NCBI GenBank assembly: GCA_046482545.1
Contig: JAWOEX010000035.1
Coordinates: forward strand, 32,001 to 96,000
Source: Candidatus Thorarchaeota archaeon
GTDB lineage: Archaea > Asgardarchaeota > Thorarchaeia > Thorarchaeales > Thorarchaeaceae
Length of the DNA: 64,000 bases
Direction: 5' to 3'
Below are positions 6,366 to 40,274 of this stretch, in pieces (position 1 is the stretch's first letter; each line of letters starts with the position of its first letter). The notes below the pieces were generated by a model. It saw only the letters and a program-made list of their open reading frames with translations. It was not told where the DNA came from and searched no databases. The translations under genes were made by a program, and so were the position numbers.

Positions 6366-7817
6366 ATGGCTGAAAAAGTGAGAATCAGAGGAATCTACTC
6401 ACAATCATTAGCTCAAATCCTTCTACAGAATCACTTTGAAATAGTACAGCCTTCCCCTGATGTCGCTAGGCGTTTTGGACTTCCGTTTAGAGATGATATA
6501 CCTGATATCGATATCTGGGACAGAAGTGACCTCCAAGGTATTGTTGCTATAGCATACGAGTCCCTACTCAACAAGCTTGCACATGTACTTCGGAGAAGAC
6601 TTGGCTGGATAATCACACGTACTCCTAGAGTGGCCAAGAGCTCGATATACAAAGGTAAGGTGGTAGGAAAGGACAGACGAACAGGACAAATGAAAGTGGA
6701 CTTGGGTAAAATGTGCGGATTGTTACCAGAAAAGGGAATCAAGCCAGATTCATTCAAGATGGTCCAAGTTAGGGCGCACGATTATGGCCGAAAATCGCCG
6801 GTGCTATCAACCAATATTACTGTACCAGGTAAGGTTGCGGTCCTACTCCCTGAACCAGTTGTGCGGATTAGTACCAAAATCAAGGACGAGAAGAAACGTC
6901 GTTATTTGACAGCGCTTGGTAAGCAGCTGCGACAACATACGGAAGGATGGGGCATCCTCTGGAGGACAGCAGCAGCAAAACTAACTGAAAAGGAGCTTAG
7001 AGATGGCGTTGATGACCTTTTGGATGTCACACAAAGGATATATGCAGATTTCGAAGAGGTAGATGGTCCTGGACGTTTGTTTGAGGGAACAAGTAATGCC
7101 GATATAGAGTTCCCAGCTGAAGTAAAGAAGGCTCTTGACGAGACCCGGGGCAAAATTAGACCCACCATGAAACATCACCATTTCTACAAGAGCGCGAGTT
7201 ACGGTCCCCTAGTAGACTTCGGTGAATTAATCATCGAGGAGAGACCTGAAGAGCAAGACTACATGACATCAAAGCTGGAAAGAGTGGTATCAAGAGATAT
7301 GCCCAAGGTGAATGATTCCATAAATATTGAGCATGTCAAACTCGACGGGAGAAATATTGTTCTATCTCGGGGGATAGTAACAGAAGTCAATACTGGAAGT
7401 TTAACAGTACGCCGGAAGTTTAGATACACTAATCGGAAGTTAAAACTAAATCGGAATCATTCAGAAGACGTAGATGTGTCGTGTACAGAAGGCGATTATG
7501 CTGTTACCAAAGTAGTCCCCGGAGCACAGACTCTAGTTACGAAGTATTATTCGCGTAATGGCAGATTGAAGGGAGCCTATGTAAATCTCAACACCGCTGT
7601 CGAGGTATATCCGAGCAGCAGTGACGATCCAAGTCGGGTTCGTTACATAGATTTAGAGATTGATATTGTGAATCCGATTCAAAGCAAGGCAAGGATAATA
7701 GACCAACATCTCCTCAAGCGGGCTGTTGAAAGGGGGTTCATTACGCAGAAGATGGCTGCAAAGGTAGAAAGAAAGGCTAGAATAATATTTGAAGGTATGA
7801 AGAAGAGCAAAGAATAA
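6366..7817 (+). CDS. fau-1: FAU-1 / AU-binding ribonuclease (RNase E/G-like N-term + DUF402)
   Basis: Start re-set to ATG 6366 (KVRIRGIYS.AL); GWGILWRTAA, HHFYK, YVNLNT.VE, RYIDLEIDIV. Confidence 0.85.
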   Translation: MAEKVRIRGIYSQSLAQILLQNHFEIVQPSPDVARRFGLPFRDDIPDIDIWDRSDLQGIVAIAYESLLNKLAHVLRRRLGWIITRTPRVAKSSIYKGKVVGKDRRTGQMKVDLGKMCGLLPEKGIKPDSFKMVQVRAHDYGRKSPVLSTNITVPGKVAVLLPEPVVRISTKIKDEKKRRYLTALGKQLRQHTEGWGILWRTAAAKLTEKELRDGVDDLLDVTQRIYADFEEVDGPGRLFEGTSNADIEFPAEVKKALDETRGKIRPTMKHHHFYKSASYGPLVDFGELIIEERPEEQDYMTSKLERVVSRDMPKVNDSINIEHVKLDGRNIVLSRGIVTEVNTGSLTVRRKFRYTNRKLKLNRNHSEDVDVSCTEGDYAVTKVVPGAQTLVTKYYSRNGRLKGAYVNLNTAVEVYPSSSDDPSRVRYIDLEIDIVNPIQSKARIIDQHLLKRAVERGFITQKMAAKVERKARIIFEGMKKSKE

Positions 7818-36838: not shown

Positions 36839-38035
36839 CTATTCATTCAGGAAATCGAGTAAAAATGCTTCTAGCATTCCTGCGGGTACATCTGATAGAC
36901 CAATTAGCGTTGTCTGTCCCCGTTGTCCTTCCCCGGATCGCTTTGTATCAATCACGCCATGTGCATTCAGGTCTTGAACCCACTCCCAAACTTGGGTATG
37001 AGATCGGGGATCTTCATCATACTCTTCACAAACTGTTCGGTACATCTCTTCCACTTCACCCATTGTCACATATGCACTCCGTACTTCCTTCAGTTGGCGC
37101 GCTGCTGCCAGCAGCAAAAGCTTGTTTTGTAGGGGAAGAGTTGAGAAAACCTCCTTTCGTAGCTCCGGATGTGTATCAGCTTTGGCCTTTCGTACGAAAT
37201 CAGGTATCACAACACCAGAACGTTCCGTATCAGCCTGCTTGCCAGCACGCCAGAGAATCTCTATGGCATATCTTGCATCACCACATCCAGAGGCTATGTC
37301 AGAAATGACCTGAAGGGTCTCCTCCATGACAGCATTGTCCTTGAAAGCCATCTCTGATCGCTGACTGATAATGTCATAGAGTGCTTCTGAATTGTACTTC
37401 TCAAAGCGTAGAATATTACGCTGCAAAGTACTAAGTGTACTAGAATCAAAGATGGAGTCATCTAGAGGTATGTCCCGACCAATACCAATTATCGAAAGTC
37501 GTTGGGGAGAATTGAGACGATCGTCATTCAATCGAGTCAAGTCGTAGACTATACTCCCACCTTTTTGGGTTATGAAGTAGTCGAGCTCATCGAGGATAAG
37601 TAGAAGATACCTGTCTTCAGAATCAAGGACATCCATTATTAATTGAAGAAGCTCTTCAGGTGAATGTCCTCTTCGAGGAAATTTTGGCTTGAATTCCTTG
37701 AGAATCCGTAAATAGACCAAGTATTTGCTCTTGTTTACCCTGCAATTCACATGGATTTTGTGTAGATGAATATTTCTTCTTCTTGCAGCACGTATCATTT
37801 GTTCTGCAAAGCGTTTTGCAACGGCCGTCTTTCCTGTACCAACGGGACCTTCAATTATGAATTTGTGACTCGTTTTTCCGGGCGACGTTATCAGGGTTTT
37901 GAAACTACGAGCTAGCCTTCGAAGCTCATTTTCTCGATGAGGGAGGGTCTCTGGTACATAGTCAATCGATAGATATTGCTCCGATTCGAATACTGTATGT
38001 CTACTTAGCTCGTCTTCAACAAAATCTAGCGGCAT
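36839..38035 (-). CDS. cdc6: Orc1/Cdc6 replication initiator
   Basis: DYVPE.LPHRE, GPVGTGKT, LDELD, GDAR.AI, C-terminal winged helix with RGQTT. Confidence 0.95.
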   Translation of the reverse strand: MPLDFVEDELSRHTVFESEQYLSIDYVPETLPHRENELRRLARSFKTLITSPGKTSHKFIIEGPVGTGKTAVAKRFAEQMIRAARRRNIHLHKIHVNCRVNKSKYLVYLRILKEFKPKFPRRGHSPEELLQLIMDVLDSEDRYLLLILDELDYFITQKGGSIVYDLTRLNDDRLNSPQRLSIIGIGRDIPLDDSIFDSSTLSTLQRNILRFEKYNSEALYDIISQRSEMAFKDNAVMEETLQVISDIASGCGDARYAIEILWRAGKQADTERSGVVIPDFVRKAKADTHPELRKEVFSTLPLQNKLLLLAAARQLKEVRSAYVTMGEVEEMYRTVCEEYDEDPRSHTQVWEWVQDLNAHGVIDTKRSGEGQRGQTTLIGLSDVPAGMLEAFLLDFLNE

Positions 38036-38251: not shown

Positions 38252-38352
38252 TGGTGCGGCCGCCGGGATTTGAATTCCCGCGGAAAAGCTATTTCCGTCT
38301 CGGGTCGGAAGCTTGGGAAGCTTCAGTCCTAACCATGCTAGACCACGGCCGC
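38252..38352 (-). tRNA. tRNA-Gly(CCC), CCA encoded, with 24-nt BHB intron at 53/54 (intron 38275-38298)
   Basis: Acceptor GCGGCCG/CGGCCGC, anticodon arm GAAGC-TTCCCAA-GCTTC; central helix CCCG/CGGG with AGA and AAT bulges. Confidence 0.92.
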
Positions 38353-38649
38353 CAAAACGGGAAAACTTGGAATCATGATAAAAGCGTATCGAAAAACACC
38401 CGGCAATGGAGATAGATTTGAGGTAACGAGAACCCTACAAATGTAAGATAGAGAATATCAGAATTTGACGTTGAGCCTAGAGAAATAGAAATCTTACAGA
38501 ATCCTAAATAAATCGGTACATAGAAGTGTAGGATTTCTGTAAGATTCCCTGCTACTTCGTGTAGAAGACAGACCATCGTGTATGCACCAATTCGATATCC
38601 TACCCGCATAGTAGGGGTCTAGCCACCTACATTGAGTGTGTAGACTGTG

Positions 38650-39200
38650 TCATGAGCTTGACAGGTCTACAGCCTTCACACCTACCACCCGGTCAACTGG
38701 ACGGGGGGGCTTGATCCCTTTACTCTCTTTGAGCTTCTCGTCGAACATCGGGAACTCCGAGAGGTCAGCCCGACTAGAGAAGTCCTTGACCCTGTTCAAG
38801 ATGACATAAATGGAATGCAACTTCTTTGTATCACTATCATAGAGCTGCCTGCTCTCAATCAAGTAGCCAACATCATAAATGCTCAACCGTATATCATCCA
38901 ATTCCAGCAGTGTTTCCCCGAAATCGGATTCAATAAACCATACTCTCCAGCGAGTGTTGTCTTCTGGATACCGTTTCAAAGTTCTTTCAGGAGTAAAAAC
39001 GAGTTTGAGTTCTTGACCCACAGAGATTTCCAGTAGCTCCTCTGCCATCCGTGGGATGACAATGATTCCTGTCAACACCTTGTTCCTGTGCACAAAGGGC
39101 CTGAGTATGCTCAGACTGAACACACGGTTCTCTGTCTCGACATCGGTATACTCCACATCCTGGCACCTGTCCCATATCAAAATCTCGCCGTCTTCGGTAT
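38650..39200 (-). pseudogene. 3' fragment of an unknown gene, truncated by the TnpB remnant
   Basis: The last ~180 aa of ORF 38650..39414 read as protein-like; its first ~70 codons are the antisense of TnpB. Confidence 0.4.
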
Positions 39201-40274
39201 CGAGAAAGCTGCCTGCACGAGCTTGATTACTCCCCAGAAAGTCCGGGAGATTCGGTACTTCGTGCAGGAAGACAAGGTCGAACGCATCAAGGGGCTCGAT
39301 AATCTCGTCGCACAACTCCAGCATGAAATACATGCCCGGAAAAACAGTGCAAACCTCACGATGACGTAGCAGCAAGGCTACGGAAGCTAAAGGGCAAGCG
39401 CTATCGAGTGGCAAAGGAGTGCGACCGGTTTCTTGTCAGACAGATACTCGATTACATCACCGAGCTGCCTGAGCAATACGCCCTCTAGGTAGCTATCGGC
39501 CGGCTCAAGAACATCCGGCATACTGCTCGACGCGGCAACTACAAGGAGCGCAGGTTCCGGGGTATGATACACTCTTGGGCCTTCGCACGCATCACCAAGA
39601 GTCTCAAGCACAATCTCGAGCAACTTGGCTGGCCGGTTGAAGGTAAGGATGCACGGTTCCAAGTGGTACCGGAGAACTGGACCTCGATTATGTACTGGGA
39701 GTGCGGTAACAAGGGCAGGAGACCAAGGCAGGACCGCTTTACTGTCCGAGCTGTGGCAACCGGTGCAATGCAAACAGGAACGGGTCTATCAACATCGTAG
39801 GACGCCTCATTACGCTCACTTCATCTTTGTATGACCTGAAAGGAATAGGCAAGTGGGCTAGCGCAGTAGCGCGACGCGCTCGGCCGAAAGCCCGAGGAAC
39901 GTCTTCGACTTCTCGACGGAAGTCCTTACTTTCCAAACAAGTATATCATCAGGCTCTGGAGAGTCCGCGGCTGTTCACTATGTCCAGATGGACCTCCTCA
40001 GCTACGGCGACTGAGTTGAGGTAGGGAATCATGACCACGCCGTGGTAAAAACTGTGGAAGACCTCGCTGTTGCTAGGAGTGATGACCCGGAATGATGACA
40101 GGAGAAAGAAGGCAGGACCGCGGGAGGAATCCCATTCCGATGAACGTGGACAGAGCCTCAGCTGACCCGAGGGGCCATTGGGTAGCCTTGGGGGCGGTGA
40201 CGCTGGCAGGAGAAGGGTGGAACACAGAGGTTTCCTCAGTTGGATTCACTCACTCAACTGGAAGAACGGGTTAT
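39197..40274 (+). mobile_element. tnpB: Decayed TnpB (IS200/IS605- or IS607-type) element: RuvC half plus right end
   Basis: Across frameshifts (~39350, ~39740) and a TAG (39486): GIEKAAC..., VAIGRLKNI, HSWAFARI, VPENWTSIMYWECG, YCPSCG, NANRNGSINI; then the conserved right-end repeat ending GGTTAT. Confidence 0.85.

Follow-up and report, generated by a model that had tools for sequence, protein, structure and literature searches.

Asgard archaea carry TnpB elements associated with a Cas1-like gene (aCas1). They were described as Cas1H-Asgard-1 and Cas1H-Asgard-2 by Altae-Tran et al. 2023, citing Makarova et al. 2020, and the available part of that text gives as their signature a variable stretch followed by GTTCACTCA downstream of tnpB (PMC10691335). 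Predictions of the family date from 2020/2023, and in the literature searched no experiments testing it were found. A second point of comparison is provided by enzymes with a shifted (alternative) RuvC-II Glu, for which DNA cleavage has been shown with TvTnpB and ApmFz2 (PMC10530073). According to Yoon et al., Fanzors and pro-Fanzors are defined by DPG together with the alternative Glu, and the TnpBs with D-hydrophobic-G and alternative Glu form a separate clade (PMC10711439).

The window analysed here is a stretch of 64,000 nucleotides from a Candidatus Thorarchaeota archaeon, in which an initial annotation had recognised a decayed tnpB with a rearranged RuvC-II site. The whole element extends from about 38482 to 40273. 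In the explanation that we consider highly probable as a whole, it is an inert, internally deleted derivative of a Thorarchaeota aCas1-TnpB transposon. Its features are as follows:

38476-38481, left of the element: CCTAGA, resembling the TCNNGA target motif (motif derived from paired ends)
38482..38570, + strand: element left end, AAATCTTACAG with an internal inverted repeat
38650..39203, - strand: 3' tail of the aCas1 giant gene, the remainder deleted (84% identity over 705 nt to the end of the intact element's 1655-aa gene)
39194..39203, no strand: deletion junction, 10-bp microhomology by comparison with the 8.36-kb intact element
39194..40095, + strand: tnpB 3' remnant, a pseudogene with Zn finger (frame translation and comparison with an intact copy)
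39860..40258, + strand: predicted scaffold of an omega-RNA, ~400 nt long and in part within the 3' end of tnpB (28-locus alignment, GTTCACTCA motif)
40244-40252: GTTCACTCA motif with one mismatch, following a short variable stretch
40258..40273, + strand: element right end, CTGTAAG-like and inverted relative to the left end, then GGTTA (recurring ends)

The left end is common to 30 copies in the genome, which differ outside that sequence, and the omega-RNA region has 55 genome matches of at least 200 nt. Alignment revealed 84% identity to two parts of the 8.36-kb element, which lies on the same contig; its positions 747-756 and 7249-7258 are joined in the window copy at the microhomology (9/10 identical). 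The deletion of about 6.5 kb took out most of the partner gene as well as the 5' half of tnpB, and with it the RuvC-I Asp codon at the junction. By comparison with an intact copy, the remnant also shows single-bp losses near 39349, 39741, and 39940, a Zn-ligand Cys changed to Tyr at 39693, and the RuvC-III Asp changed to Asn at 39773 (D436N), and a TAG stop is found at 39486, directly before VAIGRL. These lesions uphold the initial call of a pseudogene. The residues on which that annotation was built agree with the frame translation as well: the Gly of VAIGRL (GGC, 39498) and the Glu of VPENWTS (GAG, 39672) are 174 nt or 58 codons apart, with six residues between this alternative Glu and the first Zn-finger Cys position. 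The span given for tnpB (39197-39960) was correct at its start, whereas the real end of the gene is at 40095. Pfam searches with the remnant fragments gave no match. Because of the deleted RuvC-I Asp and the further lesions, the copy as sequenced cannot encode a nuclease or cut DNA; it would at most still supply the omega-RNA and the two ends, and nothing more.

One open reading frame in the region and part of another were rejected as real genes. A 254-aa frame (38650-39414) is a chimera of the giant aCas1 tail and antisense tnpB, and the N-terminal extension of a 456-aa frame at 40092 is read-through of element DNA. A tRNA-Gly(CCC) gene (38255-38352, - strand), missed by ARAGORN and found by Rfam, lies ~125 bp away from the left element end and has an apparent intron in the T arm. 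An orc1/cdc6 gene (36839-38035, - strand) lies just left of this tRNA gene and the element.

Intact elements are 7.7-8.3 kb long. Between their left and right ends they carry, in this order, a leftward giant gene, tnpB in divergent orientation, and an omega-RNA of about 400 nt. In the four intact or near-intact elements of the genome the divergent partner gene encodes a protein of 1410-1963 aa, and this divergent pairing was seen four times in this genome and at four of the related loci that were read. The partner had been expected to be either a Y1 or a serine transposase. It is neither; a Cas1-fold giant adjoins the four intact tnpB loci. No IS607-type serine recombinase was found beside any intact tnpB copy, and PF00239 was not found in the whole genome (98.9% complete). 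Likewise, no Y1 TnpA lies beside tnpB, and the only Y1 match of the genome (C24:6161) has no adjoining tnpB. In the 8.3-kb element only, a 224-aa ORF (L008:4367-5041, + strand) without Pfam or PADLOC match is found between tnpB and the giant gene. The giant is present in 44 of 76 same-family genomes and in 3 of 11 genomes of one other family, and many TnpB family members in other Asgard families stand without it.

The giant protein had no match in Pfam, PADLOC, or the PDB sequences, and only a fold search revealed its likeness to Cas1. When a structure model of the first 480 residues (pLDDT 81.5) was compared with 48,161 chains, the best 12 were all Cas1 or casposase (Z 12.9-8.9) and the next unrelated chain scored 6.3; the top Cas1 match had an rmsd of 3.6 with 178 residues aligned. 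Foldseek with the same model returned Cas1 for all of its top 16. The matched part of the giant corresponds to the helical catalytic part of Cas1. Among its conserved residues are E79 (39/40) and H174, D181, and D184 (40/40 each). An hhalign comparison with Asgard Cas1, though not significant (E 0.22), placed E79 on the Cas1 catalytic Glu. Based on the motif and this weak alignment, E79/H174/D184 may represent the Cas1 triad. The modelled fold thus argues for a Cas1-like catalytic domain at the N-terminus, as part of an overall explanation in which our confidence is high. Following this domain, a PD-(D/E)xK-like motif was read by eye. Separately, residues ~560-800 and beyond (L012:4589-8821) resemble a degenerate P-loop ATPase in their strands and motifs. 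In another Asgard family, open frames of 1325-1367 aa (G041:C5:121343, G041:C4:342074, G058:C9:5285) have a weak full-length Cas1 match and are possibly a second giant aCas1 type.

The left and right ends occur dozens of times in the genome. An identical TCNNGA hexamer flanks 14 of 25 paired short copies at left and right, and the 8.3-kb copy is flanked likewise; the central bases of the hexamer vary from copy to copy. These 6-bp direct repeats read as a target-site duplication. On the right flank of the window copy, the left TCNNGA-like motif is not repeated. In several copies (e.g., G000:C9, C18, C20, C28) the match between left and right flanks reaches 8-11 bp, and the seven bases after the left hexamer are common within subfamilies. 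The main element subfamily has TCNNGA sites; in one subfamily (L011 near 11230; L033; L034) the right end differs and, in a casposon-like manner, lies directly against a tRNA gene at its 3' end. Comparison of the copies revealed no TAM-like motif conserved upstream of this target repeat.

An alignment of the omega-RNA from 28 loci predicted 90 pairs, 46 of them with changes on both sides, and gave a covariation term of -10.9 kcal/mol; the fold is predicted from this alignment, scored without a phylogeny-aware test. Single-sequence folding was no better than shuffles (z 0.46 and -0.86), and Rfam returned only tRNA for the window. In the window, in the four paired copies, and in most same-family loci, the Glu codon is followed by the GTTCACTCA motif at a distance of about 575 nt, and the stretch preceding the motif is only moderately variable. 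Based on the Cas1-fold partner and the downstream GTTCACTCA, the window element matches, in the testable features given in the available part of the paper, the published Cas1H-Asgard-1 or -2 elements (PMC10691335). That the system is already described in this source was missed by the initial annotation.

A genome search with the remnant revealed seven relatives. Among these, four are intact tnpB genes (544-623 aa), a fifth has an open frame and lies next to other genes, and one copy lacks its 5' part. All seven retain the Gly and the alternative Glu. The 120 best database matches (65-100% identical) carry Thorarchaeota or Promethearchaeia names wherever named, in agreement with the Asgard host first proposed. 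In these homologues the RuvC-I Asp, the alternative Glu, the RuvC-III Asp, and all four Zn Cys are present in 120/120 and the Gly in 119/120, and the Glu is six residues before the first Zn-finger Cys in every case. The conservation of Gly and Glu in intact copies, named at the outset as the decisive check, therefore marks a family trait, and the nuclease-type site postulated for intact members is complete (D/alt-E/D). In an intact paralogue the positions are D241/G344/E402/D436, and its AlphaFold model (pLDDT 79.9) has the TnpB fold, in which the Gly is the last residue of the RuvC-II strand (E338-344) and the Glu comes after the following strand (E397-400). The same pattern extends to distant relatives in other Asgard families and to shorter TnpBs of 345-450 aa. 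In a set of 96 proteins, whose rows are not independent, the alternative Glu alone occurs in 68 and the canonical Glu alone in 28, and no protein has both or neither. By their residues, the intact proteins classify as alt-Glu (RuvC-II-rearranged) TnpBs, with Gly at the canonical site, the alternative Glu, and both Asp.

The neighborhoods of these relatives are varied. One intact tnpB (L010:5203-10176) adjoins an AbiEi/AbiEii pair and a radical SAM gene, with no giant gene, and the 5'-truncated tnpB (L009:8402-9307) is joined in the same frame to the beginning of a gene for an Lrp/AsnC-like HTH protein. Another Asgard family (G026:C1, G074:C1, G003) has about 10 or more intact 480-530-aa relatives per genome; at the three loci read there, neither a giant gene nor a transposase adjoins tnpB. 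Locus searches that started from distant TnpBs yielded little.

Taken together, very likely the window holds a dead deletion derivative of an aCas1-TnpB element whose intact members combine a Cas1-like integrase with an alt-Glu RNA-guided TnpB. The Cas1-like domain would integrate the element ends by a staggered cut at TCNNGA, and would also move the gene-less copies of about 550 bp in trans. TnpB would bind the omega-RNA and cut DNA using the relocated Glu, by analogy with TvTnpB and ApmFz2, and this cutting would most likely favor retention or spread of the element. An alternative is that intact members are catalytically altered RNA-guided binders, which target or regulate the aCas1 integrase without double-strand cutting. 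The unusual partner with its own PD-(D/E)xK-like motif, the large RNA, and the absence of a TAM-like motif next to the insertion site are in line with this, and the target repeats would complicate classical homing. However, the 120 homologues all retain the two Asp and the alternative Glu, the alt-Glu enzymes tested to date cut DNA (PMC10530073), and the insertions have only TCNNGA in common, with no sign of guide-matched sites. We therefore regard a binding role as unlikely and retain the cutting TnpB.

Less likely still is a reading in which Fanzors descend from the Asgard family or are its sister group, having reached eukaryotes by way of the archaeal host lineage. In its favor, the alternative Glu occupies the same aligned position, and all alt-Glu proteins fall on one side of the tree of Yoon et al. 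(PMC10711439). However, RuvC-I reads DLG or similar (D-hydrophobic-G) and in none of the family members read DPG, and pro-Fanzors are cyanobacterial IS607 elements (PMC10711439). The Asgard profile matched short Gly/alt-Glu TnpBs at E 3e-57 versus 1e-12 for a DPG set; this set, retrieved by its motif and validated by matching ApmFz2, includes proteins from giant viruses, fungi, and cyanobacteria. The nearest relatives of the family are shorter archaeal Gly/alt-Glu TnpBs, and the solved structures nearest to the TnpB model are Cas12f (Z ~19) and ISDra2 TnpB (17.2), ahead of ApmFz2 (15.7).

Trees were built from the RuvC core (about 230 columns, the three diagnostic columns removed) and left Fanzor1, TvTnpB, ISDra2, and Cas12f to comparison through PDB searches only. 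A quick tree needs at least five changes of state. In a first AU test with 96 rows, an Asgard plus DPG clade was not rejected (p 0.665), because the constrained search beat the under-optimised quick free tree by 15.6 lnL. As that test was made against the quick tree, thorough searches were run with 59 rows, excluding long, biased, and redundant ones. Here the DPG group joins typical canonical-Glu TnpBs (support 100/100), and forcing an Asgard plus DPG clade is 26-33 lnL worse, with p-AU values of 0.039, 0.020, and 0.070 under three settings. In the best trees the Asgard family is found among NAD-type Gly/alt-Glu proteins and Fanzor2 and pro-Fanzors elsewhere. A clade of DPG plus all NAD-type alt-Glu proteins gave p-AU values of 0.070, 0.024, and 0.046 with an incompletely optimised tree, and a single clade of all alt-Glu proteins was rejected (p under 1e-19), the latter result probably being driven by two viral-contig proteins. 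These TnpBs (L108, L187) combine DLG with Gly/alt-Glu and branch within typical canonical-Glu TnpBs, which suggests a further origin of the shifted Glu.

The link between the Asgard family and Fanzors is thus disfavored, by a tree rejection that is borderline, based on ~230 columns with a long DPG branch, and made with Fanzor1 unsampled. That the Asgard aCas1-linked proteins are sister to or the source of part of the Fanzors, such as Fanzor1, we consider very improbable; if it were so, the archaeal host lineage would have handed an RNA-guided nuclease on to eukaryotes. The shifted Glu is common among prokaryotic TnpBs and shows no special tie to Fanzors. Of the two possibilities first raised, relevance to Fanzor origins is not borne out, given the absence of DPG, the best tree, and the Cas12f structures, and on present evidence the family has no bearing on the question. 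Convergence fares better in that a separate origin fits, although not one de novo in this family: the Glu was probably inherited from a broad, mostly archaeal NAD-type Gly/alt-Glu group (of the TnpB2 or RIIr kind), and would have come neither from nor gone towards the Fanzor lineage. Finally, mere pseudogene decay as the source of the window Gly, an idea to which the many lesions might lend themselves, has virtually no chance, being refuted by the Gly (119/120) and Glu (120/120) of intact homologues and by the 68/28 split of the 96-protein set.

The window copy amounts to debris. Its family offers a useful lead, being a recently mobile Thorarchaeota transposon that seemingly pairs a Cas1-fold integrase with an alt-Glu TnpB. 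As this one genome provides four giant genes and four intact copies of tnpB, together with defined element ends and a target repeat of 6 bp, integration and TAM assays would be straightforward.

Compared with known systems, the element is closest to Cas1H-Asgard (PMC10691335), whose description in the available text shares the Asgard host, the divergent Cas1-like gene beside tnpB, the repeats at the ends, and GTTCACTCA; the window copy differs in being deleted and dead. The 6-bp TCNNGA repeat, the domain layout of the giant, and the RuvC-II state of the Cas1H-Asgard branches are absent from that part of the text. Casposons (PMC4046053) likewise have a Cas1-fold protein as presumed integrase and direct repeats at insertion sites. 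In contrast to them, the Asgard element has no family B DNA polymerase gene, its ORFs being the giant, tnpB, and at most the one 224-aa ORF; it carries TnpB and an omega-RNA, and its giant matches only the helical catalytic part of Cas1, fused into a much larger protein. Fanzor2 and the cyanobacterial pro-Fanzors (PMC10711439; ApmFz2, PDB 9B0L) share the alternative Glu position and the TnpB fold, but differ in their DPG, in a canonical site that is usually occupied by Pro, in the DRD of RuvC-III, and in their IS607 partners. With the alt-Glu TnpBs, as represented in the available parts of the sources by TnpB2 such as TvTnpB (PMC10530073), RIIr-5 (PMC10691335), and the D-phi-G/Ealt clade (PMC10711439), the family has in common the Gly at the canonical RuvC-II site, the Glu six residues before the Zn finger, and the D-hydrophobic-G of RuvC-I. 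RIIr-5 is described there with a Gly at the RuvC-II strand end and a Glu after the next strand, and a Natronorubrum IS200/IS605 example has the same Gly/alt-Glu/D-hydrophobic-G pattern. The Asgard proteins differ from these TnpBs in being larger (about 540-620 versus 345-450 aa), in having a Cas1-like instead of a Y1 partner, and in their RNA of ~400 nt.
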